The notes beneath the pieces were generated by a model that saw only the letters and a program-made list of their open reading frames with translations, had not been told where the DNA came from and did not search any database. The position numbers and the translations under genes were made by a program. From Ostreococcus lucimarinus (Eukaryota), in assembly GCA_000092065.1 (NCBI GenBank), contig CP000583.1: DNA of 64,000 bases; one strand, 5' to 3'. Positions 1-33,153 of the stretch are shown here, one piece after another (the stretch's first letter is position 1; each line of letters starts with the position of its first letter).

Positions 1-1990
1 CGACGAGTTCGTCGACGACTTCGCGCACCGCCATACCTTCGGCTCGATTCGGGCCACCGTCTCGCCGCGCTCGCAGGAGCGACTCGACTGCGTCCCGCCG
101 CGCAGCTTTGATCTCGCCCGGTGATATGTAAAGTCCGTCCGTAGCCTGCGCGTCGACGTCTGCGATACCTCGAAGGGTGGAGACATCCACACTTGCCACC
201 ACGAGCGGCGTTCCGCCGAGTTCGCCGATGGCTTTCTTCAACGAATTTTCGTCGAGCGCCTTGTTTTGACTCTTCTCCAACACAGAACCAGTGCGAGCTT
301 CTCCGAATCGTCCGGCATCATCGATGATTTTGATGACTAGCGGTTCACCGATCGCACCACTCGCGACGACGGTGCACGGATCTCGACGACCGTCGCGACT
401 CGGCTCGGCCTCCGCGGGAACCATCTTCGCGAGCTTGGCCTCGAGCGTCGGGTCGGATGTTCTCCACACTAGCTGTCCAACCTCGACCCGGTTGAAATCG
501 ATTTGGTTCGCACCGAACGTAACGGTGTACTCGCCCGCGGTGATGCGGTCGTCGTCTTTACCGCCCACGAGCGCTCGATTGCGATCAAAAATTTCGTAGA
601 CGCGACCGCCCTCCTCCTTCTCTTGCGGCTCGCCTCGATCGATGACGACGCCATCGCCGCGCTTCATCGCCGCGCCGTCGCTCGTGCGTACGACTATCTC
701 ACCGTTCGAGCGTCTGCCGTCCGGCTTGATCACGCGCACGATTTCTCCGAGCAAGACGCCGCGATGCCTTGGGGCTCGTCCGCGAACGAGATTTTGATGC
801 CGCGGTCCCTCCAGGAAACCGCGCGTCAATCCATCGAAATCCGCGTCTTGGCCGCGCGCGAACACTTGCGTGAGTTCCAGTCGCTGCTCTTTCGAGAGCA
901 ATTCGGAGCGCTTCACGTCGCGTCCGCTCTGCATGGCGTCCCACGCCAAGTCCACCGCGCGGCGATACGCCTGCGTGGCGATGGCGACGTACTCTGGACC
1001 TTTCAATCGTCCTTCGATTTTAAAGCACCCCACGCCGGATTCGATGAGCTCGGGCACGAGCTCGACCGCCATTAAATCTTGCGGTGACAACAAATATTTT
1101 ACATCCCCCATCTCGCGCAGCTCGCCGTCGACGACCAATCCGTACGGCATTCGACACGCCTGCGCGCACTGACCGCGATTCGCCGACCGACCGCCCCAGG
1201 CTTCGCTCGAAAAGCACTGTCCACTGTAGCTCACGCACATCGCCCCGTGCACGAACGCCTCGACCTCGACGTCCGGACAGCTCGCTTTCACCGCGGCGAT
1301 GTCCGTCACGCTCAACTCTCGACCGACGACGACGCGCTTGCACCCGAGCTCTCGCGCGAAGCGCGCGCCCTCCGCGCTCGTCACGCTCATCTGCGTCGAC
1401 CCGTGTATGGGCAAATTCGGCGCCGTCTTCCGAATCAACCGCGTCACCCCCACGTCCTGCACGATCACCGCGTCCACGCCCGCGCGCGCCACGCCTCGAA
1501 TCAGCGTTTCCGCCAACCGCAACTCCTCGTCGAACACCAACACGTTCATCGTCACGTACGCTCGCCGCCCGCGCGACTTCACGTACGCCATCACCTCATC
1601 CAGCTCATCCAGCGTAAAATTACTCGCCCGCGCGCGCGCGTTCAGCGCGTCGAGCCCAAAGTACACGCAATCCGCGCCGGTCTCGATCGCCGCGCGCAAC
1701 TGCGGCCATCCGCCCGCCGGCGCGAGCACCTCCGGCTTCGCGCGCGCCGCCGCCGCCGCCGTCCCCTCCTCGCGCGCGGCGTCCTCGCGCGCGGCGTCGC
1801 GCCACGACGTCGACGACGATAACTCGCGCGACTCTCTCAGGTATCGCGCGCCCTTGCGCGCGCCCTCGGCGCGCGCGCGCGGCGTCGTCAACGTTCGCGC
1901 GCCGTCGCGGCGGCGGCGCGCGTTCGCGCCTCGCGTCGCGCGTCGCGCGCGCGGCGCGCCGCCGACGCGCGGCGACGCGTCCGCGAGCAT
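1..1990 (-). CDS. Peptidase U32 family protein (RlhA/YdcP-like long form); 5' end complete, C-terminus runs off the window start
   Basis: Manual minus-strand translation is open from ATG (1990..1988) to position 1 (>660 aa). It is absent from the ORF track because there is no in-window stop. N-terminus reads ...KPEVLAPAGGWPQLRAAIETGADCVYFGLDALNARARASNFTLDELDE... The U32 signature EAFVHGAMCVSYSGQCFSS and ...KIEGRLKGPEYV... are present. An Arg/Ala/Thr-rich N-terminal extension resembles an organellar transit peptide. Confidence 0.7.
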   Translation of the reverse strand, partial: MLADASPRVGGAPRARRATRGANARRRRDGARTLTTPRARAEGARKGARYLRESRELSSSTSWRDAAREDAAREEGTAAAAARAKPEVLAPAGGWPQLRAAIETGADCVYFGLDALNARARASNFTLDELDEVMAYVKSRGRRAYVTMNVLVFDEELRLAETLIRGVARAGVDAVIVQDVGVTRLIRKTAPNLPIHGSTQMSVTSAEGARFARELGCKRVVVGRELSVTDIAAVKASCPDVEVEAFVHGAMCVSYSGQCFSSEAWGGRSANRGQCAQACRMPYGLVVDGELREMGDVKYLLSPQDLMAVELVPELIESGVGCFKIEGRLKGPEYVAIATQAYRRAVDLAWDAMQSGRDVKRSELLSKEQRLELTQVFARGQDADFDGLTRGFLEGPRHQNLVRGRAPRHRGVLLGEIVRVIKPDGRRSNGEIVVRTSDGAAMKRGDGVVIDRGEPQEKEEGGRVYEIFDRNRALVGGKDDDRITAGEYTVTFGANQIDFNRVEVGQLVWRTSDPTLEAKLAKMVPAEAEPSRDGRRDPCTVVASGAIGEPLVIKIIDDAGRFGEARTGSVLEKSQNKALDENSLKKAIGELGGTPLVVASVDVSTLRGIADVDAQATDGLYISPGEIKAARRDAVESLLRARRDGGPNRAEGMAVREVVDELV

Positions 1991-2273
1991 CGCGGCGACG
2001 CGCGCGCGACGTCCTCGCGGCGCGCGCGCGTCGACGGCGCGCGACGCGTCGATGTGGCGTCACTTCGCGGCATGCGCGCGGTGCTCGCGCACGCGCGCGA
2101 CGCGACGCGCGCGCGGCGCGACGTCGCCGCGCACGTGCACGTGCGGGTGCGTCGCCGCGATCGACGCGCGGACGCGCGCGCCGGACGCGCGACGCGCGCG
2201 ACGCGAGAGTGACTGACGACGCGACGGCTCGGCGTCGGCGCAGGATTCGACGACGACCGGCGCGGGGGCGCTC

Positions 2274-3260
2274 GTGGTCGACGCGCTCGTCGATGGACAC
2301 GCGCGGGACGTTCGCGCGGGCGACGCGGCGTCGCGAGCGGTCGTGCGCGCGCGATGGACGCGAGGGCGGGCGCGCGGGACGCCGACGGCGGATGTGGACT
2401 TGGCGGCGACGCGAGGCGAACGCGCGATGACGGATGCGATTCTAGCCGTCGTCGAGCGCGAACGGACGGTGGTGACGACGCGAGACGCGACGCGGGACGC
2501 GACGGCGACGACGACGGGGCGCGGGCGGCGGAGCGGGGCGTTCGGGTACAAGCCGGACGCGGAGGCGAACGCGACGGTGGTTTTGGACTGCGCGAGCAAG
2601 ATACGACGCGCGTACGGCGAAAAGGCGCTGATTCGCGTCGTGCGCGCGCTGCGGCGACACAGAAACGTGTGCTTGGTGGTGACTTTGGGGGTCGGGACGG
2701 CGACGGCGCGCGAGACGTGCGAGGCGGAGGCGTCGTGCGTGGCGACGTGCGAGCCGGCGGAGGGCGACGACGACGGGTCGCGGGCTCGTTTAGACGTAGA
2801 AATCAGACGCGCGTGCGGACGGCGGCGTCGCGAGCGCGAGCGCGTGATCATTAGAGACGACGATTCTCTCGAGTTCGCGCCGTGCGAGGCGGAATCCGTG
2901 GAAGATGCGGTGGCGCGCGCGCTGCGCGTCGGCGACGACGACGCCGAGACGCGCGCCGCGAGGCGTCTCCAAGCCGTCGTCCCGTTCAATCTCGGCGTCA
3001 GTCTCACCGCGGAAGAGCGCGAGGCCAAGCGCAACGTGAAGCTCTCCTACGAGCACCAAGGCGTGCGCGGCGTCGAGGCGTACGACACGGGTGATTTTTT
3101 AGCCTACCTCCCGCCCGACGCCGGCGGCCGCGGCGTCGCCCTCGGCGTCGCCAAGCCCGGTCGCGGTCACATCTATTACGAGCGCGACGCCGCGGACGAA
3201 GACTTAGACGACGACGATCTTCACGTCGACACCGACGACGAGCTCGAGGAGGATTATTAA
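2274..3260 (+). CDS. Hypothetical protein with acidic C-terminus; start uncertain because the N-terminal part lies in a CpG tract
   Basis: The ORF track C-terminal half is non-low-complexity (VVLDCASKIRRAYGEKALIRVV...GHIYYERDAADEDLDDDDL). I recognise no family. Confidence 0.3.
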   Translation: MVDALVDGHARDVRAGDAASRAVVRARWTRGRARGTPTADVDLAATRGERAMTDAILAVVERERTVVTTRDATRDATATTTGRGRRSGAFGYKPDAEANATVVLDCASKIRRAYGEKALIRVVRALRRHRNVCLVVTLGVGTATARETCEAEASCVATCEPAEGDDDGSRARLDVEIRRACGRRRRERERVIIRDDDSLEFAPCEAESVEDAVARALRVGDDDAETRAARRLQAVVPFNLGVSLTAEEREAKRNVKLSYEHQGVRGVEAYDTGDFLAYLPPDAGGRGVALGVAKPGRGHIYYERDAADEDLDDDDLHVDTDDELEEDY

Positions 3261-3601
3261 CGCACCCGCGCCCTCGTCTCTCGCTCTCGCGCTCCCTTCG
3301 CCCCTCGCGCGCTCGGCGTCCGCTCGGAAAGAGCCCATAACTCGCGAGACGCCACCGTCGTTTCGGCGCGCGGCCGACTTTCGCGAAGTCAAGGCGTCGT
3401 AAATCCCCAGCAAAGGCAGTATGGTAATTTTTGCCCGCGCGCGCGCGCGCGCGTCTTCGACCCCCCCGAACCGCCGAACCGACGCGCGGCGTCGCTCGAC
3501 GACACGAAGCGTCGCGAAGGGTCGACTCGACCCTCGCCGCACACCGCGCCGCGCCGCGCCGGCCCGCGCGCGCGCGAGGGCGACGCGAGACGAAACGCGG
3601 C

Positions 3602-5032
3602 ATGGGCGACGGATCCGACGCCGCGCGCGGTCGCGTCGCGCGCGCGTCGCGCCCCGTCGCGCTGTACGCGCTCGCGTGCGGCGCGCTGACGCTCGCGACG
3701 TCGACGTGCGCGTCCGCGGCGACGCGCGCGGCGGGCGCGCCGCGCGGCGCGGCGTTCGCGCTCGCGCACGCGCTCGCGCTCGGACGACTGAGCGGCGCGC
3801 TCGCCGAGCGATGGCCGCCGACGCCGGCGCTCACGGCGCAGACGCTCGCGGGGACGCTGCTGCGAAACGTCCCGGGCGCGCGCGAAGCGATCGGCGGCGC
3901 GGTGCACCGCGACGCGTCGACGCTGGCGAGAGCGTTCGCGCTGGGATTGATATTGGCGCGCGCGGGGCTGGCGCTGGACGCGGCGACGGCGCGACGACGC
4001 GCGCGGGAGGTGGCGACGCTGGCGACGATTCCGGGGACGCTGGAGATGCTGGCGACGACGGCGCTGGGCGCGGCGTTCTTCGAGCTACCGATCGCGACGG
4101 CGTTCGCGCTGGGATTTTTGATGTGCGGGATATCGCTGGCGGTGGTGATTCCGCCGGCGGTGGCGATGAAGCGGACGGGGCTGGGCGTGGAGGCGGGCGT
4201 GCCGGATCTCGTCGTCGCCGCGAGCTCGTTTGACGGAATTCTGTGCATAGTCGGCTTCGGCGTGTGCGGCGGCGTCGTGGCGGCGTCGGGGGGGGGCGGG
4301 GCGAGCGCGATGGCGTGGAAGGTGCCGACGCAACTCGTCGTCGGCGCGCTCGGGGGAGTCGGCGCGGCGGAGTTCGCGACGAGGTCGGGATTGTTGTCCG
4401 CGCCGGGGAATCGCGCGAGCGCGACGTCGGACGCGTCGATGATTTTGTCCGTGGTTTTGTTGATTTTGTTCGCGGCGAAACGGTTGGAAGTGAACGGCGG
4501 AGGAGCGCTGGCGAGCATCGCGTTTTGCGTCGCCGTCTCGAGCGCGTGGAAATCGCGCGGGATGGAGGACGCGCTCAAGGAAACGACGGCGTTTATGAAC
4601 GCGCTGTGGGCCGAGTTCGCGGCGCCGCTTTTGTTCGTCATCATCGGATGCACGCTCGATTTGCACGCGATGACGGGCGACGTCGCGGCGAAGGCGATCG
4701 GAATCATAGCTCTCGGGGGAATTGTGCGAGCGCTCGGTGTCTTTTTGAGTACGGCTGCGAGCGAGTCGATGAATCTTCGCGAGCGAGCGTTCATCGCTCT
4801 CGCATGGACACCCAAGGCGACGATTCAGGCGGCTTTGGCGAACGTGGTTTACGACCAAGCGGTCACCGCTCATGGCGTCGGCTCGCCCGAGGCGCTCGAT
4901 GGCGAAAAGCTTTTACAAACCGCGCTGTTGTCGATTTTAATCACGGCGCCCTTGGGCGCCTGGTGCATCGCCTACTTCGCCCCGCGGCTTTTGAAGCAAG
5001 AGACGAAGCCCGTCGCCATCGCTGTAGCATAG
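3602..5032 (+). CDS. Cation/proton antiporter (CPA/NhaP-like) multi-pass membrane protein
   Basis: Multiple hydrophobic helices (ALGLILARAGLALD, FALGFLMCGISLAVVIPPAVAMKRTGLGVEAGVPDLVVAASSFDGILCIV). First ATG after the CpG tract is at 3602 (MGDGSD...). Confidence 0.5.
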   Translation: MGDGSDAARGRVARASRPVALYALACGALTLATSTCASAATRAAGAPRGAAFALAHALALGRLSGALAERWPPTPALTAQTLAGTLLRNVPGAREAIGGAVHRDASTLARAFALGLILARAGLALDAATARRRAREVATLATIPGTLEMLATTALGAAFFELPIATAFALGFLMCGISLAVVIPPAVAMKRTGLGVEAGVPDLVVAASSFDGILCIVGFGVCGGVVAASGGGGASAMAWKVPTQLVVGALGGVGAAEFATRSGLLSAPGNRASATSDASMILSVVLLILFAAKRLEVNGGGALASIAFCVAVSSAWKSRGMEDALKETTAFMNALWAEFAAPLLFVIIGCTLDLHAMTGDVAAKAIGIIALGGIVRALGVFLSTAASESMNLRERAFIALAWTPKATIQAALANVVYDQAVTAHGVGSPEALDGEKLLQTALLSILITAPLGAWCIAYFAPRLLKQETKPVAIAVA

Positions 5033-8488: not shown

Positions 8489-11400
8489 CTAACGACACAC
8501 GCTCAGCACGCCGTCGCATCTCAAAGTTGCGAATAAACGAGAACTCGACAAGAGCTGGATCGCGCAAAACGGCGTTTGCTCGCCGTACACGGAAAGTGGT
8601 GAAAATCTCGCGACCTTCTCGTTACCTGACGATGTCAAAGCAAACACGCCTATCGTCGCACCGCTCACACTGAATACATCACCCTTGGTGCTCACAGCGA
8701 TGTCTCGAACCTCGTGTTGATGACCTCGAAACGTGCGCACTCGGCCGTCGAAGCGTTTCTTAGCGTCGCCGCGGGTGTCGATCATGCGCACATCCCAAAG
8801 AGCCACAGTCATATCGTCTGAAGCGGTGAGAATTTCGTAAGATTTACTCGATGGCGAGACGATTTTGTTGACGCCACCGTCGTGCGCCTTGACGTCGAAT
8901 ACCACGCCCGACGTTCGTAAATCGAACCCACACATGTATCCGAATCGATTGCTTGCGTACACCAAGCCATCCGTTGATGCATGCAACGCTTCCACCTCGG
9001 TGGCCGATGCGGCGTCGTCATTTGGACACTTGAATTGTCGAAATATTTTACCCGCCCCTGCATCTGCGATGAGGACTCCGCCGTTGGTCGTGCCGCCAGC
9101 AACGTAAGGCGAACCGCGAGCGCCGTCATAGACGCACATCGACTCGAATCCTCCCGCATCTCGCGAGTAAAACTGCCAGATGTGATCGCTATTCGTGTTC
9201 CAGACATGCATGTATCCTTTGTCGTCGCACGAACACGCCCTGGACACGTCACCTTCGTGGTCGTTGACAAAATCGAGAAACATGCTCGCCCTCACCGTAG
9301 CTTCGTGACCTGTGTAGGCTGACATCGCACCGCTCGAGTTTTCGCCCTCCGGACCGCTCGTACGCCACACACGAACGACGTTGTCGCCACGGGACGTCAC
9401 GCCGTTGGTAAGAAAGAGACGTTCATCAGCACTCACAGAAAGCGTTTGCGCCGACGGTCGAGCTATTCGACTGTGAACGCGCCACGACGTCAACGCCGCC
9501 ACATGTAGGCGCCATGGATCGTCGTCGACCGCTCCGGCATTCGCGAGCACGCTCGACATCGTTATCGTTTCAGTTTCATCATCTTCTTCGTGGTCTGACA
9601 CATCGCGTGGAAGCCAACCCCAAGCGCCAGCATTGTTCCTGTCGTTGCTCGAACGCTGATGCCACTCATCGAGGTGGTCGAGGACTGACGGCGCCGACGC
9701 AGTCGAGGCTTTGAAAATAAAAGCTTCAGACTGCGGACCAAGAGACTTCGCTAACGACGCTAAGATGTCGGCTACGAGAACGTGCGCTCCGGACGAAGTG
9801 TCGTCTCGATTGCTCTTTAATGCTTTGCGCAGAACGTCGACGATCCTTCGCAGCGCCACGGGCAACGGCGACGATTTTGCGATGAACGTCAACCCACACG
9901 TCACACGTGCTACTTCTTCTGCGCTGCAGAATTTGGGTTGCAAACATGCGATCAAGACTGGAATGAAAATGCGGTTGAACGTCGCCGCGCCCGTCGCTTT
10001 GCGAAGCGCGCGGAGGACAGCCATATCAAACAACTCGCGCTTCAATGTCGGGCCCTCGGCGTTTAAACAAGCGCTCGGCGCACTCACGGCGCGAAGAACA
10101 AGCGGTACTATCATGTCAATGACGTCCCGACGAGAGGCAACGCCGCACGCTGTCACCACTAAAGAAGACAAACACATCGCCACTTCCATCTCATCTTTCG
10201 CGGCGAGCGGTTTGCCCCCAACGTACGATTCGACTTCCGGGCATATATCGCCTAGGACGAGGTGTGCAACAGTCGGCGAAACTCCCTTGAGCGCGTCATC
10301 AGCGATCATAATCCTTGCCGCGCGCGATTCATGTGCGGTGCGCAAATTTCCAAGGACCATTGCCGCACTGCGGATATCTGTTGAAAACAACACCGAGTCG
10401 CGCACCGCGGAGGCGGCGATTGGCTTCGGCGAGTCCATTAATAGTTTTACCACATCTCGCGCTTCAACAGGCATGCGGTTCAGCCAATATTTCAGAGACT
10501 TGAAAAGCACTTGTGTGCGGTCGATATCATCGAATAAACCGTCACTGATCGACTTCATCGGTGATTTGTTAAAGAGGCCACTCACCGACGACGGCGTGTC
10601 GTCACTGTGCGCGGGACACGGCGCACCGGCGTATATGGCTCCCAATACGCGCCCGAGCGCTCGTAGATCTTTTTCTTGGACATTTCGTAGCGACGGTTCG
10701 GTAATCTTAATGATTGTTTCGACCGCATCGCACAGGTCATCCTCAGTGTTCACTGCTGGAACCGCGCGCGGAATTTCGCCAGCGCTTCGCTTTGGATGCG
10801 GCGCGTGAAAGATACAAAATCGTCCGCTCGATTTGAGCTTGCTCTTTTCGTCATCTCGCACCATGACATTCTTTGCGATAAATGCCGCCCTACCGTATGT
10901 GGCGTAACCAAAAGTCAAATCGATCCATGTGTGTAGATTATCGCTCACCGCTTTCGATTCGAGAGCTTCGCGATGAATTTTGATGAAGTAGTCTGCCGAA
11001 CCTTCGCCAACCTGAGACCAGGATGGCAAGGACAAATCGCGCATATCTTCGTGAATGGACGTGAACACGTTCGGGTTGAGGTAAAAGTCAATCGGTGCCT
11101 CGTCTGGCGACATTTCAAAAAGCCGCGCAATATCCTTGGGATATTCGTCGGCGACAAAGTTCGCTCGAACGACGCGCGCGAGCGTCGAGCGAGGCGTCCT
11201 TCGCGCCAATGCAATGCATGCGCCGAGTTCACTGAGACAATCGTCGCTCACGTGATGCGGCGGCGTCGTGTTTCGGTACGTAAAATCCAACTGTTCGTCC
11301 CCCTTGGTCAGACGCCATTTCGTTTTGCTCAAATCTCGCGCGCCGCGGAGAGAATCCGTCGAGGCGTCGAATGGAAACTCTTTAAAGTCTATCACCCACG

Positions 11401-12205
11401 GCGCGACGGCGTAATACGCGCGATCCTTCCCGCGACGTGCAAGCTCATTCAACTTGGCGATGTACTCCAAGTTGCTTATCGCTCCCACGCGCCAAGCCGA
11501 CGTGAGATGTCGCGCGCTCGTCTCGACGGTTTGCCTTTGCTTCAGGCTCGCCGCCATCACTTCGATTTCTCGACAAGGTCCGACCTCACCATCGCGTGCG
11601 TGCGGCGAATTATGCATTCCGGACAATTGTACGAACGGCACGCCCACCGCATCGCCGCTCAGCGTGGACAAGCACACGCAGTCGACGCTCAAATTCCCGT
11701 GCGCCAAGTTCTTTTCGTGCGCGTGCGCCAACGCTCGACACAGCTGAAACGCCGCCAAAGACGCCTTCGCCGCGTCGTTCGCGAACGGATTCCCCCCCGA
11801 CCTCAAACACGCTCCGAGTGTGTACTCATAAAAAGGCTCCACCGAGCACACGACGCCATCACCGACGATCACCGCGCACGCCGGCGCGACGTTTGGATGC
11901 GACGATCGAAACGCGCTCGCGCTCGCCCCTCGCCGCGCGCTCATCGCCGCGAAAGCCCTCTCCAGCGCCGACCGCACCGCGTCACAAAACGCATTCACAT
12001 CGCCGCTCGCGTTCGCGATTTCGACGCCGAGCGCGCGCGCGATCTCGCACCGTCGTCGCGTCTCCGCCGTCGTCGCGACGCGCGCCGCGATTCTCAACCG
12101 CGCGCCTCGCGCGTCCTCCAGCACCCCCTCGCCCGCGTCGTCGTCCGCGAATCGCGCGACGACGCCCTCGGGCGCGCATCGCGAGATGACTTCCGACGCG
12201 CGCAT
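8489..12205 (-). CDS. BEACH domain and WD40 repeat protein
   Basis: BEACH motif (WRVGAISNLEYIAKLNELARRGKDRAYYAVAPWVIDF). C-terminal WD40-like repeats. ATG at 12205. Confidence 0.8.
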   Translation of the reverse strand: MRASEVISRCAPEGVVARFADDDAGEGVLEDARGARLRIAARVATTAETRRRCEIARALGVEIANASGDVNAFCDAVRSALERAFAAMSARRGASASAFRSSHPNVAPACAVIVGDGVVCSVEPFYEYTLGACLRSGGNPFANDAAKASLAAFQLCRALAHAHEKNLAHGNLSVDCVCLSTLSGDAVGVPFVQLSGMHNSPHARDGEVGPCREIEVMAASLKQRQTVETSARHLTSAWRVGAISNLEYIAKLNELARRGKDRAYYAVAPWVIDFKEFPFDASTDSLRGARDLSKTKWRLTKGDEQLDFTYRNTTPPHHVSDDCLSELGACIALARRTPRSTLARVVRANFVADEYPKDIARLFEMSPDEAPIDFYLNPNVFTSIHEDMRDLSLPSWSQVGEGSADYFIKIHREALESKAVSDNLHTWIDLTFGYATYGRAAFIAKNVMVRDDEKSKLKSSGRFCIFHAPHPKRSAGEIPRAVPAVNTEDDLCDAVETIIKITEPSLRNVQEKDLRALGRVLGAIYAGAPCPAHSDDTPSSVSGLFNKSPMKSISDGLFDDIDRTQVLFKSLKYWLNRMPVEARDVVKLLMDSPKPIAASAVRDSVLFSTDIRSAAMVLGNLRTAHESRAARIMIADDALKGVSPTVAHLVLGDICPEVESYVGGKPLAAKDEMEVAMCLSSLVVTACGVASRRDVIDMIVPLVLRAVSAPSACLNAEGPTLKRELFDMAVLRALRKATGAATFNRIFIPVLIACLQPKFCSAEEVARVTCGLTFIAKSSPLPVALRRIVDVLRKALKSNRDDTSSGAHVLVADILASLAKSLGPQSEAFIFKASTASAPSVLDHLDEWHQRSSNDRNNAGAWGWLPRDVSDHEEDDETETITMSSVLANAGAVDDDPWRLHVAALTSWRVHSRIARPSAQTLSVSADERLFLTNGVTSRGDNVVRVWRTSGPEGENSSGAMSAYTGHEATVRASMFLDFVNDHEGDVSRACSCDDKGYMHVWNTNSDHIWQFYSRDAGGFESMCVYDGARGSPYVAGGTTNGGVLIADAGAGKIFRQFKCPNDDAASATEVEALHASTDGLVYASNRFGYMCGFDLRTSGVVFDVKAHDGGVNKIVSPSSKSYEILTASDDMTVALWDVRMIDTRGDAKKRFDGRVRTFRGHQHEVRDIAVSTKGDVFSVSGATIGVFALTSSGNEKVARFSPLSVYGEQTPFCAIQLLSSSRLFATLRCDGVLSVCR

Positions 12206-12637
12206 CGCCCGCGTCGTCGTCCTCGTCGTCGTCGCGCGCGCGTCCGCGTCACCGCCGCGCCAGCGACATCAGCGCCTCCCACAGCGCGTACGCGCACAGC
12301 GCGCCGATCAAACACAGCGGCACCGCCTGCGCGCTCGCGCACGCGCGCTTCCGTCGGACGTCGTCCACGAGCGCGGTCTCGTCGTCGACGAACGTCGCCC
12401 GCGGCATTGTGACGCCGCGCGCGGCAGTTTCCGACGCGGAATCGCCTCGACGCGACGCCGTGCGCGCGCCGAACGCGTCGCGCGCGACGCGAACGAACGG
12501 AACGCGCGCGCGCGCGTCGCGCGCGAGCGCGCGAGCGCGCGACGACGCGGCGAGGACGCGGCGACGTGGGAAGAAGTCGAGTTCGTTAGTAGGGGATCGA
12601 ATCGGACGCGGGAAGAAGTCGACGCGAGGACGACGCC

Positions 12638-13783
12638 ATGCGGCGACGGGAAGGCGCGGGACGACGGCAGAGTGAACTCGCGGAAGAGATCCGACGGCGG
12701 TCGAGCGATCTGCTGAAGAGCGCGAAGAAACGACCGAAGGCGGTGATGCGGCGCGCGGTGACGGGGAACGCGGATACGCGAGTGCGCGACTACGTCAAGA
12801 TTCCGCGCGTGATACGACAGATCGATAAGGTGTCGTTTTGCGCGGGTGTGTATGGGTTGATGATGACGGAATACATCGCGACGCGCGCGCCGGAGAAGTT
12901 TTGGTTGTTTTACGCGGTGGCGATGCCGGGGGTGTTTTTGGCGAGAGCGGTGTATTATCGAATGATTCGTTGGCAATACTTTTTGTACGATTTCTGTTAC
13001 TTTGCCAACGCCTCGGCGATGATGTTTCTGTGGCGATGGAAGAAGAGCGCGACGGTGTTTCGGTGCATCTTCGCGTTCGCGAACGGGCCGGTGTTGTTGG
13101 CGATTCCGTTATGGAGAAACTCGTTGGTGTTTCACAGCGTGGACAAGGTGTCGAGCATTTTCGTGCACGCGATGCCGTGCTTGATGACTTGGTGCGGTCG
13201 GTGGTACGGGTTTGGGAACGATGTGAATAGGCTGAGTGTGCGAGAGTTGGGCGCGGACGTGAGCGTTCTCACGGGATGTTTGGATCTCATGGTGTACCCG
13301 ATGTTCGCGTACTTGTTTTGGCAGGCGCTGTATTTGGCAAAGACGGAACTCATCGACAGAGTGAAGTTAGTGAGCGATCCGGCGCTCATGACTTCGCTGC
13401 GTTGGCTTGCGAGCGATCGAAACTCATCGGCGAATAAATACGCGTTGAAGATGATGCGCGGCATCGGATTGTTCGGCGCGGACGAGTTCTTCGACGCTGA
13501 ATCCATCAAGACGAAATTCGTCTTCGTCATGCTCCAGCTCGGGTACACCATCGTCACCTTCATCCCCATCCCGCTCTGTTACTCGAATTACTACGCCCAT
13601 ACCGCTCTCATGTGGGCCGCGTTCGGGTCATCGGTGTACAACGGCGCGGTGTATTACATCGACGTCTTTTCGCGCCGCTACGTCGAACGTCTCGCCATGG
13701 CGGAAGAATTAGAACGAGACTCACAAAGTCCCGGACTCTCCGAGTCCGAAATCGATCGATTGATGATGACCCCGATAGATTGA
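12638..13783 (+). CDS. Multi-pass membrane protein, DUF2838/GPC1 (glycerophosphocholine acyltransferase)-like
   Basis: Several aromatic-rich TM helices (YYRMIRWQYFLYDFCYFANASAMMFLW...). Family assignment is from memory and of moderate reliability. Confidence 0.4.
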   Translation: MRRREGAGRRQSELAEEIRRRSSDLLKSAKKRPKAVMRRAVTGNADTRVRDYVKIPRVIRQIDKVSFCAGVYGLMMTEYIATRAPEKFWLFYAVAMPGVFLARAVYYRMIRWQYFLYDFCYFANASAMMFLWRWKKSATVFRCIFAFANGPVLLAIPLWRNSLVFHSVDKVSSIFVHAMPCLMTWCGRWYGFGNDVNRLSVRELGADVSVLTGCLDLMVYPMFAYLFWQALYLAKTELIDRVKLVSDPALMTSLRWLASDRNSSANKYALKMMRGIGLFGADEFFDAESIKTKFVFVMLQLGYTIVTFIPIPLCYSNYYAHTALMWAAFGSSVYNGAVYYIDVFSRRYVERLAMAEELERDSQSPGLSESEIDRLMMTPID

Positions 13784-14051
13784 TGCACGCGATCGATGAG
13801 ATGGTTTGTCGTAAAATTTGTCGTGAAAACGCGCGCGAAATCGTCGCGACGCCGCGCGCCCGACCCGACGCCGAGAAGCGCGTTCCCGCGCCCTCAGCCC
13901 TCGTCGAAGACTTCGCCCGCCTCGTCCGCCGTCGCGTCGCCCGCCGGCTCGCGCTCGCCCTCTCGCTCCCACCGTCCGGTTTATCGACTAGTACATCGCG
14001 TCTACGCATAACAACAATCGATTCGGTCGCGTCTACGCTCTCGCGCGCGCC

Positions 14052-14321
14052 CTAGCTCGGCGCGTTCCCTTGCGCCCCCAACATCTGCCCCACGATCGCC
14101 ACGCTCTCCCAGTACTTCGCCGCGCACCGATCCACGCACGAGTTCTCCCCCACGTTCAGTTCGCCGTCCTTGAACTTCTTATCGATGCACTTCTCGTAGC
14201 ACGCGCCCACGAGCTTGTTGAACAGCTCCACGCGGTACTCCATCTCTTGTCCAGCCATGGCGAACGCCGCGTCGCGCTGTTCGGGCGTCATCGTCGGCGC
14301 GCCCTGTCCCGTCTGCGACAT
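14052..14321 (-). CDS. Small Tim (Tim8/Tim13 family) mitochondrial intermembrane-space chaperone
   Basis: Twin CX3C motif (GACYEKCIDK...SCVDRCAAKYWE). ATG at 14321 (MSQTGQG...). The upstream ORF-track extension is in a CpG tract. Confidence 0.8.
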   Translation of the reverse strand: MSQTGQGAPTMTPEQRDAAFAMAGQEMEYRVELFNKLVGACYEKCIDKKFKDGELNVGENSCVDRCAAKYWESVAIVGQMLGAQGNAPS

Positions 14322-14471
14322 CGCGGTTTCTCTCGCCGCTCTCGCGTCGCGTCGTTCGCGTCGCTCGCTCGATCCGGCGTCGTCCGTCGTCCGTCGCGGC
14401 GTCGTCTGGCGGTCGCGCCGCCGCCGCGGCGTCGCGGTGGTTCGTCGCGCGCGCGTCGACCCTCGCGTCAC

Positions 14472-14509
14472 GGTTCGATTTTCGCGATCGAACCTCGACG
14501 CGTCGATCG
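14472..14509. promoter_or_regulatory. Conserved hairpin + palindrome element, copy 1 (Tim13/MFS divergent promoter)
   Basis: GGTTCGATtttcgcgATCGAACC is an 8-bp stem with a 7-nt loop. It is followed by CTCGACGCGTCGATCG, which contains the perfect palindrome TCGACGCGTCGA. A near-identical copy lies at 20088. Confidence 0.5.
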
Positions 14510-14725
14510 CCGCGCGTCGAGCGCGTCGATCGCGCGCGCGACAAAGAGACGCGCTGACTGTTTGCCCACACGCGAGTTCGACGCGCGCGCGAGGGGACCG
14601 ACGCGGCGGCCCGCACTCGACGTCGCGCGCGCGTCGCGGCGACGAGCGCGCGGCGGGAGGCGCGGGAGACGCGTCCGCGAGACGCGCGTCGACGCGGCGA
14701 TTCGATCGACGCGCGCGCGGGCGCG

Positions 14726-16462
14726 ATGGCGAGCGCGCGCGCGGGACTCGGCGGTCGGTCGTTAGGCGGCGACGGCGACGCGCGACGCGCGACGCGCGCG
14801 CGCGCGCGGATGCGCGGCGCGAGGCGCGACGGGAGACGCAGCGCGCGCGTCGAGCGCGCGCGCGCGACGGGAGGGACGCGCGCGCGCGACGGCGCGATGG
14901 GGCGCGCGAGAGGGGGACGCGGGGAGGAGGCGCGAGAACGCGGCGACGTCGCGGCGCGCGCGAGAGCCGAACGACGCGATCGACGGGACGCGGTCGCGGC
15001 GAGCGGGAGCTCGAAGACGACGCGCGAGGATCGGGACGAGGGCGAGGAGGATCCGGACGAGGCGTGGGCGTTTGAGTTTCCGAAGTCGGCGAGCGACGTC
15101 ACGACGCTCTGGCGAGGCGCGCCGAGTCGGTATCGCGTGCTCTTCGTCACGGTGTTCGCGTTCATCGTGTGTAACATGGATAAGGTGAATATTTCGGTGG
15201 CGATCATTCCCATGGCGCGGGAGTTCGGGTGGACGAGCACGCAGGCGGGGTTCGTGCAGAGCGCGTTTTTTTACGGTTTCGCGGCGTCGCAGTTACCGGG
15301 CGGGTACTTGTCGACGAAATTCGGTGGTGCCAAGGTGTTGCCGATCGGGATGTTGATTTTGTCGTTGGCGACGATCGCGATTCCGATCGTCGGCGTGAAC
15401 GAGCAGAGCATTTTCCTGTCGCGCGTGCTCGTGGGTTTGGGCGAAGGCGTGGCGCCGAGCGCGGCGACGGATATCATCGCGAGAAGCGTCAGCGTGGGCG
15501 AGCGTTCGCGCGCCGTCGGGTTCGTGTTCAGTGGGTTCAACATAGGTTCGGTGCTTGGTTTGGGGGTGGCGCCACTATTGATAGAGGCGACGAATTGGAG
15601 GACGGTGTTCGCATTCTTCGGCTCGTGCGGTTTAGTTTGGAGTTTTTGGGCTTGGAAGCTGTACGGCGACGGCGGGATGGTTGACGAAAGTTACAAGGAC
15701 GACGGCGTCACGGGTTTGACGGGTAAGCGCATATTCACCGTCGACGCAAAGGCGATAGCGAGCGGGAAGAGCCCGGCGGAAGACCCTCCGGTGCCGTGGG
15801 GGGAGTTTATATCGAATCCGTCGGTGCGCGCGCTCATGTACGTGCACTTTTGCAACAACTGGGGCTTCTACGTCCTACTCGCTTGGCTTCCGACGTACTT
15901 TACCGACGAGCTCGGGGTGACACTGACGAACGCATCGCTGTTGACTCTGCTTCCGCCGCTCGCGAACGTCGCGATGGCGTCCGTCGCCGGTCCGACTGCG
16001 GACCGCCTCATCGGCAGCGGCATGGAGATCACGAAGGTGCGTAAAACGATGCAAGCAGTCGCCTTCATGGGACCGGCGCTCGCCATGGGCTCGGCCGCAT
16101 TGGTAGATCAGCCGGTGGCGACCGTGGGTCTGCTCACGCTCGGCCTTTCGCTAGGCGCGTTTTCGTACGCGGGTTTGTACTCAAACCATCAAGATTTGTC
16201 GCCCAAGTACGCGAGTATCCTGTTGGGCATGACAAACACGTGCGGCGCGCTTCCGGGCGTCATCGGCGTTCCGTTGACTGGGTACTTGATCAAAGAAACG
16301 GAAAATTGGGAGCTTAGCATGTTCGTTCCGGCGATGTTCTTCTACTTTACGGGAACGCTCGTATTCAGCAAGTACGGCAGCGGCGATCGACAAGCGTTCA
16401 CGGGACAACCTATGCCCGAACCAGGCGAGATTCCGCCATCGTGCGATGGCGGCGGACATTAA
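14726..16462 (+). CDS. MFS anion transporter, SLC17/PHT4-like
   Basis: MFS signature regions (MDKVNISVAIIPMAREFGWTSTQAGFVQSAFFYGFAASQLPGGYLSTKFGGAKVL). 12 predicted TM segments. Arg-rich N-terminus may be a transit peptide or spurious. Confidence 0.7.
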   Translation: MASARAGLGGRSLGGDGDARRATRARARMRGARRDGRRSARVERARATGGTRARDGAMGRARGGRGEEARERGDVAARARAERRDRRDAVAASGSSKTTREDRDEGEEDPDEAWAFEFPKSASDVTTLWRGAPSRYRVLFVTVFAFIVCNMDKVNISVAIIPMAREFGWTSTQAGFVQSAFFYGFAASQLPGGYLSTKFGGAKVLPIGMLILSLATIAIPIVGVNEQSIFLSRVLVGLGEGVAPSAATDIIARSVSVGERSRAVGFVFSGFNIGSVLGLGVAPLLIEATNWRTVFAFFGSCGLVWSFWAWKLYGDGGMVDESYKDDGVTGLTGKRIFTVDAKAIASGKSPAEDPPVPWGEFISNPSVRALMYVHFCNNWGFYVLLAWLPTYFTDELGVTLTNASLLTLLPPLANVAMASVAGPTADRLIGSGMEITKVRKTMQAVAFMGPALAMGSAALVDQPVATVGLLTLGLSLGAFSYAGLYSNHQDLSPKYASILLGMTNTCGALPGVIGVPLTGYLIKETENWELSMFVPAMFFYFTGTLVFSKYGSGDRQAFTGQPMPEPGEIPPSCDGGGH

Positions 16463-27074: not shown

Positions 27075-30000
27075 TCAGCACAAGTAACCGCGACAGTTGT
27101 CGGCGCCGCAATAGCACGGCACTTTGCCGTCTTCGCTTTCGAATCTGTAGTTGTACGTCAGCTCTTCCCCGGGCCGAACGTCGGTTCGAGCGAAAAAGAT
27201 GATGTGATTCGCGTCGTCTACTTTGACGATTTTTGAGTACATGTTCGGGTTGCAGCTGTGATTGGTGAATCGCGCAAAGTTTCCTTGAAACGTGCAATCG
27301 ACGACGGTGTCGTCGTCTTGTTTTAAGAGGTAGCAATCCACTCCGTTATCTTCGTAAAAGGTTTCGCGAAGATCCGCGACGGTGCTTCGACACGTCTCGC
27401 CTTTGAACTGCGTGACGATGGAACCCGCCTTGTGGAAAACCTTGGCCACCAGTCCCCATCCGTGTATGTTGGATTTGGCGAACGTGAGTCTATCGGAGTA
27501 CGACGCCGTCATTTGTTCGAGCTTCTCTCGCATCGTGAGCCCATGCTGTTCGACGACTTTATCATCCGAAGCGCCGTTCACGCCCCTAGCCTTGCGCTCC
27601 GCTTGTACCGCCGCAAACTCTTCGGGCGTGTACTTTTTTGAAGCAATCAACTCGCGCTTGAAGGCGCCTCGCGACCCGCGCACGATGTACGGCGTAAGTC
27701 CGACGTACAGACGTTTTCCTGTCTTCGGCGGTGGTCCCGTAACCTTGGCGTTTTTGTCGTTTTTATTCAATCCAAGACGCTTGTACACGTTGGCTTGAAT
27801 TTCTTCGAGCTGCTTGCGGCTGAGATTTCTCTGGTGTCCGAGCGATTTGGCGGACAGGTCAACGGTTTTTTCGCGCCGGATTTCGCATCCCCACACCTCG
27901 AGCCATTTTCCAAGCGACATTACCGTTCGGTTATTGAGGACGACTCTGATGTGATGGCTCCACTTCTTCGGTCCTTTCACTCCAATGTGGGCTTCAAACC
28001 GCGACCTCTCGTGGTACACCGGCCCTTGGTCGCTATCGACGCACGCTCGACACAGACATTCGATTCGTCGCGTTTGTACGTGATATGTCCCAGATACACC
28101 TTTGCATACGACGCTCACCATCGCTGGCAAGTCATCGGGAACGTGCGTACGAACGGCGTCTTCGTCTTCCGATTCTTCGTCGTCTGAACCCTCCATGTAC
28201 GGAGCGTTATCACCAAGCGCGATGCGTCGATCGATCTCGTCGTCCTCAAACTCTTGAGGCACTGAACACACCGAAAATGCGGCTTCAGGATTTTTCTGAC
28301 ACGTCCACATGTCGGCATCATCGGCAGATAACTTCTCCGCAAAACTTTGAGGGACGCGCCGCCACTTCCCGCACGACGGGTTCTCGCACTGCACCCAAGC
28401 CTCTTTCTCACGAGGCTTTTTCGGCCGCCCGAGTTCCGCGATCTTGGCGCGGTCTGCGGGATTAGACGGTCGTTTTGCTGATGTAAATTGTGCGTTGGCG
28501 ATCGCCAGTTGCGTCTCAAGTTGTGTGTTTTTGCCAGAGCTTAATTTTGCGGCTTCAGGCAAAAACGACAAATCCGGTGCCTCGCCATCGACGAATTTCA
28601 AATTTTGCGCATCACGCGTAAACGATATCATCAAGTCTGTCCCATCGTCGAAAATGACTTTATACCGAATGCCAGTGCGCGTTATCGTGACGTCAATCAT
28701 CGTTCCGTCTTTCCAGTCCGGTGCGAGAATGGTACCGGTGTCGATTTGCACGCGGCGTCCAACGAGAGCTCTTGCTCGAGTCTCTTCGCCGCTCTTATCT
28801 TCCAACTTGTCGTCTTCAAATGTTCCCAGACCGAGACCGAGGAGTGCGTGCGTACGCGAAGCTTTGGGCCGTTGGGCTTTTGGTTTTGCCGACATCGACG
28901 CAACCTTGGCCGTTTTTCCAGTATTCGCGAGCACGACGATATTGTGATCGGTAAGCCAATCACCGAAAGCTTGCTCGCCACCGTTATCGTCGACGACGAC
29001 TCTGATTGACGTTTTCCATTTCTTGGTGTGCTTCATACCCGCGTGCTGCTCCCATCTGTTCGCTTCCCACAGAGTCGTCGCGTCAGAGTTCGTGGCTTCG
29101 GCCTCACGTCTGCACCGTCCGCAGAGACATTTGATCAACGTATCTGCTGGTCTAAATATTCCTCTAAACGTCTTGCAGTAAATGTTTACTTCGGGAATAT
29201 CCGGACGCGGAACGTTTCCTTCAGGTACGGGTAAGCCGCCGGGAAGTGCCGGGTACTTTGCTTCCGGCAACTTTGCTTGCAGCGCCAACGTCGCACTCTG
29301 AGGTGAGCTCTCGGAACGCTCTGATACGGTTTTACGTCTCTTTGATTCCGGAAACGTCGTTGAGGGATCTAATTTGGCATCGGCATCCTCCACGGCATCC
29401 TCGGCGTCTGTTTTACCGCCTTCGGCATTGTCGTCGTCGTCGTCGTCTGTTGGATCGGCGTCGTACTCAACGTCGAGATCTGTCGAGAGTTCTGCGTCGT
29501 CGTCGTCGTCGTCATCCTGCAATAAGTCTTCAGTAGTTTCCATGGTATCGACGCGTTGATGCGCGATGACGTCGTCTTTTGTATGCACCATGTCTGTATC
29601 AGCACGTTCCGTCATGTCGTCGTCGTCGTCGTCATCCTCGTCGTCGTCGTCGTCGTCGTTCTCGTCCTCGTCGTCCGCGTGCAAGACCCGTTTACGAACT
29701 CGATACTTCTTCGTTCCTGACCCGGGAGCGTCGGGATTTTCTTCGTTTTCGTCCTTGATGTCCGCCTCCGTCCTCGGATGACCAAGTTGCTCGTAACGAC
29801 GGAACTTTGCGCAGTTCATGAAGTCTGTCTCAGAGTCTGAGCTCAACTCTGGCTCATCAGCGAGCGTCGCGGATGCTTCTCGTCTCTCGCGCTCTTCTGT
29901 TTCCGCGCGCATCTCCGCCTTGGTACGTTTTCGTTCCTTATTGGCACCACACTCCAACAGCCGTCCCTCCTGGCCGATCTTCAAGCCCTCTGTGCCGGCG

Positions 30001-32540: not shown

Positions 32541-33153
32541 CCGAGATCGCGCGCGTGTTTCGGGGCACGAAACACCCGCGCGCGGCGAGAGATTCGATCG
32601 CGCGATCGCCACGTGCCGCGCCGACGGCCGCGCGACGCGCGATCGCGCACACCGCGCTTTTCGAACGCGCAATACGTCGATCTCGGCGAACTTCGCGAAA
32701 TTCGCGCCGCGCGAAAAAAAAAGAAGCGCCGATCCGCAAAGACGGAAAAGATTTTCTCGCGCGCGCGATCGGATCTCGAACGCGGGGGATTCGCGCGATC
32801 GACGACGTGAGGTTCGCGCGCGATCGATGATCGCCGACTCCAGGGTCGCGCGATCGCGCGATCGATCGATCGCGCGCGCGTGCCGCGCGCGGCCGACCGC
32901 GCGCGCGCGGCCTTTCGGAACCCGCGGGCGCGCGCGCGGGAGACGACGACGCGCGAGGCGCGCGGGCGAGCGCGAGCGCGGGCGCGAGCGCGCGCGGGGG
33001 GGTTCGGTGCGAAAAAATTCGCGCGCGGCGACGTCGAGGCGCGGGCGCGGAGACGCGGTCGGCGACGGCGCGAGGGCGGTGGCGATTCATCCATCCATCG
33101 CGCCATCGAGCCATCGAGCCATCCATCGCGGCGCGGCGGGCGAGACGGGGGGC

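Follow-up and report, generated by a model that had tools for sequence, protein, structure and literature searches.

The first 1,990 positions of a 64,000-nucleotide stretch of Ostreococcus lucimarinus DNA (contig CP000583.1; the whole stretch is here called the window) encode, on the minus strand, the larger part of a protein of the peptidase U32 family. This family has been described as almost exclusively bacterial (PMC10990095), and the locus raises the question of what such a protein does in a green picoalga and how the gene came there. Public databases label the algal proteins of this kind U32 peptidases. In Escherichia coli, the U32 protein YdcP/RlhA is required for the formation of 5-hydroxycytidine (ho5C) at C2501 of 23S rRNA (Kimura et al., PMC5727448). 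The protein of the window was assigned to the RlhA branch of the family. The reading put forward here, whose chances are judged to be even, is that a nuclear gene of a Mamiellophyceae-like green picoalga, of apparently gammaproteobacterial origin, would encode a plastid-imported, iron-sulfur (Fe-S), prephenate-dependent hydroxylase acting on C2501 of the plastid 23S rRNA.

Domain organisation and family assignment

The translation of the minus strand from position 1990 to 2 gave 663 sense codons with no stop, and the frame is still open at position 1, the edge of the window. It is collinear with bacterial homologs and the alignment gave no sign of an intron. Within the window the coding sequence (CDS) is a single uninterrupted exon, and the first-pass annotation was right in describing an exon of more than 660 codons that runs off the window. 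It had also directed the search for the C-terminus to the upstream contig. A protein search returned a protein of 1019 residues (P0001), identical to the window fragment save at three positions, whose gene lies at 10001-13060 of the metagenome contig L001. The DNA of this contig matched the window with 99.85% identity across the gene and 99.8% across the 10 kb flank. Three independent metagenome contigs, the longest being L001, encode this protein in the same gene order. The missing third thus supplied, which lies outside the window, is a second Peptidase_U32 domain according to Pfam. The three differences between the window and P0001 are M251 (1238-1240, minus strand), T104, and one Ala fewer in a poly-Ala run at about residues 77-83. 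Residue M251 directly precedes the cluster cysteine C252, and at this position 90% or more of the homologs have Leu, among them the metagenome copy with 99.85% identity; the Met of the window reflects either natural variation or an error in sequencing.

The complete protein consists, in order, of an 85-residue leader, U32 module 1, a β-rich region, DUF3656 and U32 module 2, which is UbiV-like. It is in effect a single-chain pair of the UbiU/UbiV type with the RlhA-specific DUF3656 between the modules. Pfam Peptidase_U32 (PF01136) was matched at residues 161-389 with E=3e-76 (256 bits against a cut-off of 22.4). The coordinates of the features are collected in Table 1.

Table 1. Features of the U32 locus in window coordinates
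Feature	Position	Strand	Basis
U32/RlhA-type CDS, codons 1-663 of 1019 (5' two-thirds)	1..1990	-	Translation; match to P0001
Start codon ATG	1988..1990	-	First ATG past the in-frame stop at 2060-2062
In-frame upstream stop TGA, 5' bound of the U32 open reading frame (ORF)	2060..2062	-	Coincides with the end of ORF 2060..3034(-)
N-terminal extension, residues 1-85, not in bacterial homologs	1736..1990	-	Composition, alignment, AlphaFold
RKGARYL, residues 45-51, local variant of RKNxx[LIVM]Y	1838..1858	-	12-sequence alignment
U32 module 1, residues 86-389, TIM-barrel-like catalytic domain	824..1735	-	Homologous to E. coli RlhA residues 9-263
Four-cysteine motif CX6CX15CX3C (C252, C259, C275, C279)	1154..1237	-	Cys positions; alignment to RlhA
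DUF3656 (PF12392), residues 508-642	65..469	-	Pfam E=1.5e-14, 55 bits against cut-off 22.1; hhalign to RlhA 391-506
5' intergenic region between U32 gene and divergent gene 2427-3260(+)	1991..2426	.	GCGCGAC-type low-complexity sequence, very GC-rich

The structure of the full protein was predicted with AlphaFold from a 74-sequence input, with a mean predicted local distance difference test score (pLDDT) of 84.9 and a predicted template modelling score (pTM) of 0.86. Both U32 modules were modelled as α/β barrels with the β-rich region and DUF3656 between them. The cysteine loop at residues 256-276 was of low confidence, which is expected because the site needs a cofactor. Searches of the Protein Data Bank by sequence gave no match with phmmer and only chance matches with a profile search.

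The four cysteines of module 1 were invariant in both the 12-sequence and the 74-sequence alignments. Those of module 2 (C861, C876, C880 and C903 in P0001 numbering) were invariant in the former and at least 90% conserved in the latter; their spacing, C-X14-C-X3-C with a remote Cys, is UbiV-like, and the module has a weak similarity to UbiV (E=1e-4). The pattern of PROSITE PS01276, taken here as E-x-F-x(2)-G-[SA]-[LIVM]-C-x(4)-G-x-C-x-[LIVM]-S, found no strict match in module 1, as the window reads EAFVHGAMCVSYSGQCFSS and a Ser (C-F-S-S) stands at the [LIVM] position, the single mismatch. The PROSITE U32 signature named earlier thus stood as far as the functional residues go, all of which are present, and failed as an exact match at that one position. 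The arrangement C252-X6-C259-X15-C275-X3-C279 fits the published motif CX6CX15CX3/4C, which has been tied to [4Fe-4S] binding in U32 proteins, and the cysteines of module 2 also fit published U32 Fe-S motifs (Pelosi et al. 2019, PMC6747719). The four cysteines of module 1 are predicted from this to be ligands of a [4Fe-4S] cluster.

Comparison with the E. coli paralogs revealed RlhA as the closest, with 199 bits against the window protein, followed by TrhP (156) and UbiU (130). Module 1 is 42% identical to RlhA, and hhalign aligned RlhA residues 6-506 collinearly with residues 85-647 of the protein (probability 100, E=3e-60). The E. coli protein itself gave the same two-domain Pfam result, U32 followed by DUF3656, and the co-occurrence of these two domains has been reported as unique to the RlhA subfamily (PMC5727448). 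The protein therefore belongs to the RlhA branch, since it carries both domains and RlhA is the closest and collinear paralog, in accordance with the initial description as a long-form RlhA/YdcP-like gene. Mutagenesis of RlhA has shown C169 and C176 to be essential and E161 to be partly required, and C580 and C611 to be essential as well (PMC5727448). The first three align to C252, C259 and E244 respectively, which are invariant in 74 homologs, and the CX6CX15CX3C motif is kept. The algal protein differs from RlhA in its length (1019 against 653 residues), in its leader, in being the product of a eukaryotic nuclear gene, and in having a complete second U32 module at the place where RlhA has a short Cys-rich tail.

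The UbiU-UbiV heterodimer, an O2-independent ubiquinone hydroxylase, resembles the algal protein in that both contain two U32 modules with a [4Fe-4S] site of four cysteines in each (predicted in the algal protein); module 1 is UbiU-like with 32% identity. The heterodimer is made of two chains, whereas the algal modules are fused with DUF3656 between them. TrhP (YegQ), a prephenate-dependent tRNA U34 hydroxylase, shares a U32 module with the same cysteine motif and 30-31% identity in module 1; it has neither DUF3656 nor a second module, and its alignment needs a long insertion. These likenesses suggest that the protein could be an organellar, O2-independent, prephenate-dependent hydroxylase of another substrate, either U34 of tRNA, the target of TrhP, or, on the model of UbiU/UbiV, a prenylquinone or another aromatic ring, with the fused modules replacing the heterodimer. 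The UbiV-like features of module 2 argue for this rather unlikely alternative, as does the fact that TrhP and UbiU were the top NCBIfam matches, both below threshold; moreover, no long form, that is a protein carrying both U32 modules, has been characterised biochemically. Against it, the scores lay far under the equivalog cut-offs (TrhP 218 against 534, UbiU 171.5 against 440, UbiV 41.9 against 275). NCBIfam lacks a model for RlhA, and a search with E. coli RlhA gave the same sub-threshold pattern, so that these values exclude TrhP, UbiU and UbiV only. RlhA scores higher than TrhP and UbiU and aligns collinearly along 500 residues, and DUF3656 is reported in the RlhA subfamily only. Deinococcus radiodurans, which is reported to have ho5C2501 and to encode an RlhA1 protein (PMC5727448), belongs to the second bacterial genus reported with this modification, and Deinococcus carries the long form.

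A true protease, as implied by the name 'collagenase-like PrtC family protease' in the source databases, is very improbable. The name comes from the Joint Genome Institute and UniRef entries, and a few distant U32 members have been reported as collagenases; these belong to the PepU32#2 and #4 subfamilies (PMC5727448). The features conserved in the algal protein are cysteine clusters of the Fe-S type and the RlhA-specific domain, no protease site is recognisable in the TIM-barrel fold, and collagen is no algal substrate.

Leader and predicted destination

The conserved part of the protein, beginning with KPEVLAPAGG, is preceded by 85 residues. The extended translation showed no other ATG between the upstream in-frame stop and the start codon, and the second Met of the protein, M134, lies inside the conserved domain; the extension must therefore be translated. 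Its residues 1-41 contain 29% Arg, 24% Ala and only 5% Asp and Glu, with a net charge of +10 and few hydrophobic residues. In the AlphaFold model residues 1-65 were of low confidence and mostly without predicted structure, with pLDDT below 50 at 1-52 and 54-65. The median number of residues before the domain is 83 in the eukaryote clade described below, compared to 8 in bacteria. The extension, earlier called transit-peptide-like, is Arg/Ala-rich, predicted to be disordered and confined to the eukaryote clade, and the description is borne out.

In six other sequences of the eukaryote clade the N-terminus is a hydrophobic stretch resembling a signal peptide, and in one of the signal-peptide-bearing members this is followed by the junction PAAA↓FGVSAP. 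An AAA↓F junction is the classic bipartite signal of complex plastids. The signal-peptide-bearing proteins P0061 and P0040, the two that were looked up, sit on eukaryotic contigs. The named carriers all belong to plastid-bearing lineages, namely Chlorophyta and Bigelowiella. Prephenate is synthesised in plastids through the shikimate pathway, as is established in plant and algal biochemistry. On the basis of leader composition, the bipartite signals of relatives, the plastid-bearing carriers and the plastid source of prephenate, we favour the plastid over the mitochondrion as the probable destination.

An enzyme of the same family and chemistry could also be imported into the mitochondrion and hydroxylate the mitochondrial large-subunit rRNA, which is considered improbable. 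A positive Arg/Ala-rich leader would fit a mitochondrial presequence too, and Degli Esposti et al. treat such proteins under mitochondrial ancestry with relatives in deep alphaproteobacteria (PMC10411912). Besides the carriers and the prephenate supply, the signal peptides for the endoplasmic reticulum and the AAA↓F junction in several clade members, which are of the complex-plastid type, stand against this destination. The first 46 residues are 10% hydrophobic with no predicted helix and would make a poor amphipathic presequence. Furthermore, the nearest bacteria in the tree are gammaproteobacteria, not alphaproteobacteria.

A motif in the leader region is specific to the eukaryotes. The strict form RKNxx[LIVM]Y, seen among the N-termini of P0017-P0100 and placed about 40 residues ahead of the U32 domain, was found in 42 of the 70 eukaryote-clade sequences and in none of the 94 from bacteria; the clade of the window protein itself carries the variant RKG[AE][RK]Y[LI]. 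The motif probably lies in the mature protein, and may be a docking site at the mature N-terminus. A bolder possibility, which we regard as a long shot, is that the fused enzyme is a self-contained UbiU/UbiV-like hydroxylase of a plastid small molecule (a prenylquinone or aromatic ring) rather than of rRNA, with RKNxxLY as the docking site for a plastid partner. If so, the algae would gain O2-independent hydroxylation in darkness or anoxia, a chemistry described so far only in prokaryotes.

Genomic context and ancestry

The nuclear setting of the gene was assessed from its neighbours. The ten large neighbouring ORFs examined include a plant-type serine hydroxymethyltransferase (SHMT), an ALO/FAD oxidase, a BEACH-WD40 protein, a DUF2838 protein, a transporter of the major facilitator superfamily, a SET/PHD/PWWP/HMG/SAND chromatin protein of 1865 residues and a RabGAP-TBC protein, and several of these genes are eukaryote-only. 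The best named match of the SHMT was from Mamiellaceae sp. RCC2288 (80%), the closer matches of 89-92% coming from marine metagenomes only. The relative synonymous codon usage of the U32 gene correlated with that of the pooled neighbours at r=0.935 (control range 0.78-0.95), and its G+C content at third codon positions (GC3) is 0.77; two neighbouring genes whose L001-derived coordinates fell out of frame were excluded from the GC3 comparison. Contamination by bacterial DNA or an assembly chimera, suggested by the almost exclusively bacterial occurrence of the family noted at the outset, was rejected and has a practically negligible probability. The gene shares one stretch of DNA with eukaryote-only genes in the window, and this linkage recurs, with 99.8% identity and the same gene order, in three independent metagenome assemblies; the gene is native in codon usage and GC3, and it carries the eukaryote-specific leader and motif. 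The clade also holds algal proteins derived from genomes and transcriptomes (Coccomyxa, Volvox, Chlamydomonas and an MMETSP transcript). With eukaryotic neighbours and native codon usage, contamination and chimerism are no serious option. The first-pass annotation had likewise placed the gene in a eukaryotic nuclear context and apart from contaminant bacteria, and both statements hold; its intron-containing neighbours did not appear, as each of the ten that were tested is one unbroken ORF whose domain matches are full-length. Genes are closely packed in this region, and introns are few.

The nearest relatives, at 72-80% identity, were metagenome proteins only. The named relatives, at 50-57% identity, were from Coccomyxa, Micractinium, Volvox, Chlamydomonas, Sanguina, Cymbomonas, a pedinophyte and the chlorarachniophyte Bigelowiella; the present distribution of the gene takes in green algae and complex-plastid algae. 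Bacterial homologs of full length, with about 830-890 residues, were found, among the matches listed, in Chromatiaceae/Sedimenticolaceae, Leptolyngbya, Deinococcus, Pirellulaceae, Chloroflexi, Acidobacteria and Paenibacillus, and in Deinococcus the long form is widespread among these matches. These bacterial long forms (RlhA1+RlhA2; the Deinococcus DR2130 type and others) are collinear with the algal protein at 41-54% identity and have both U32 modules, DUF3656 and all eight cysteines. They differ in having no N-terminal extension and no RKNxxLY motif. None is directly characterised, and the link between the Deinococcus protein and ho5C is an inference of Kimura et al. (PMC5727448).

Trees were built by neighbour-joining and rooted with E. 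coli RlhA, both for the full length and for the window-encoded part. The 70 eukaryotic sequences formed a clade (bootstrap 87% for the full length, 65% for the window-encoded part), which grouped with 36 gammaproteobacterial sequences (99% and 88%). The eukaryote clade is nested in the bacterial radiation, in accordance with the bacterial ancestry suggested earlier. The cyanobacterial link proposed with it was not recovered, the sister group being gammaproteobacterial in a tree with two cyanobacterial sequences. Both of these, from Leptolyngbya, fell outside the clade of eukaryotes and gammaproteobacteria and had their own nearest relatives, among the matches listed, in Deinococcus and Chloroflexi; a cyanobacterial origin was rejected on the present sampling. 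The gene thus appears, as far as these alignments tell, to have reached the algal ancestor from bacteria related to Chromatiaceae/Sedimenticolaceae and not from the cyanobacterial endosymbiont.

Two observations touch the question of the donor. The small bacterial group of the protein P0104 (contig L088) branches just outside the clade of eukaryotes and gammaproteobacteria, and its contigs, at GC 0.70, carry BRCT+LRR, DUF4215 and MopE-like genes; this group could be relevant to the donor. On the contig of the ortholog P0061, a bacterial-type aconitase B (Aconitase_B_N + Aconitase_2_N; L087 1909-4813, minus strand), apparently split into two gene calls, adjoins this ortholog; the rest of the contig is clearly eukaryotic (RING, CAF1 and BMT5-like genes). 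This aconitase B may be another bacterial-type gene in that alga.

The surroundings of the gene showed further features. The region upstream of the start codon is presumed to hold the promoter and 5' untranslated region of the U32 gene. Its GCGCGAC-like, GC-rich sequence continues to about position 4000, and the GC content across 2001-4000 is 0.74; the genes of 277 and roughly 480 residues beyond the intergenic region gave no Pfam match. On the other side, just past window position 1, L001 carries downstream of the U32 gene a 183-residue DUF493 (YbeD-like) gene (13164-13715, plus strand) and then a 797-residue squalene/oxidosqualene cyclase gene (13901-16294, minus strand); the U32 and DUF493 genes are adjacent on all three contigs of this species. 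Farther into the window, a single ORF of 1865 residues without introns (27075-32672, minus strand) combines PWWP, HMG-box, SAND, PHD, zf-CW and SET domains, and its product is a histone methyltransferase of trithorax-like type in which the pairing of SAND with HMG is unusual.

Proposed activity and its meaning

The activity proposed for the protein would proceed in five steps. A precursor made in the cytosol would enter the plastid by means of the Arg/Ala-rich leader, which would be cleaved upstream of RKGARYL/RKNxxLY. In the stroma, each of the two modules would receive one [4Fe-4S] cluster. The enzyme would then dock on assembling plastid 50S particles, much as E. coli RlhA binds pre-50S particles (PMC5727448). 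There it would hydroxylate, independently of O2, the C5 position of the universally conserved C2501 (E. coli numbering) of the plastid 23S rRNA. The decarboxylation of prephenate would serve as the source of the hydroxyl while the Fe-S clusters relay electrons, a mechanism which has been proposed for the U32 family (PMC10990095); prephenate was shown to be the oxygen donor for UbiU/V (PMC10990095) and is genetically required for RlhA (PMC5727448). In E. coli, ho5C2501 tracks the iron supply and benefits cells in oxidative stress (PMC5727448), and by analogy the modification may tune the peptidyl-transferase centre of the plastid ribosome to these two conditions.

Several points weigh against this proposal. 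No experiment ties any long-form or eukaryotic member to ho5C, and a literature search found no report of ho5C in plastid rRNA. The essential C580 and C611 of RlhA could not be aligned to module 2, as the hhalign alignment ends at RlhA residue 506, and the local match of LPIFHTEHC of module 2 with RlhA 564-572 was non-significant (E=2.7-3.0). With regard to the destination, plastid and mitochondrial presequences of green algae look alike; the Bigelowiella gene model has no signal peptide and may be truncated, and the N-termini of the metagenome proteins are automatic gene calls. With regard to the origin, the trees are by neighbour-joining only, with two cyanobacterial sequences and no named alphaproteobacteria, and their bacterial set consists of the matches listed. 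The identity to gammaproteobacteria (54.6%) is barely above that to Leptolyngbya (53.2%), and similar proteins have been reported in Magnetococcales, which are not in the tree sample (Degli Esposti et al., PMC10411912).

Proteins of this composite kind have been noticed before. The Methods of Degli Esposti et al. 2023 mention fusions of U32 with DUF3656, which often end in a UbiV-like C-terminal domain, as frequent in Chlorophyta and in the stramenopile-alveolate-rhizarian (SAR) group (PMC10411912). The algal protein has the same domain fusion in the same lineages and is therefore a new member of a family already noticed. That report mentions the existence of these proteins only; a targeting signal, a place in the phylogeny, a motif specific to eukaryotes and a function are not given there. 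To this the present analysis adds the leader, the bipartite signals found among relatives, the motif confined to the eukaryotic sequences and a sister group in the gammaproteobacteria. The literature search found no paper linking U32 to Chlamydomonas. The present status is that of a well-supported annotation and a directly testable hypothesis, and no new kind of system is described.

If the proposed function is true, prephenate-dependent, O2-independent Fe-S hydroxylation would not be confined to prokaryotes, contrary to the U32 literature, and would also take place in plastids, in marine algae that are very abundant. In such algae, ho5C would be present at the peptidyl-transferase centre of the plastid ribosome. 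In E. coli this modification responds to the supply of iron and is of help in oxidative stress, two conditions that are central in phytoplankton ecology. The gene would then represent a plastid function that was acquired from non-cyanobacterial bacteria and afterwards spread with secondary plastids.

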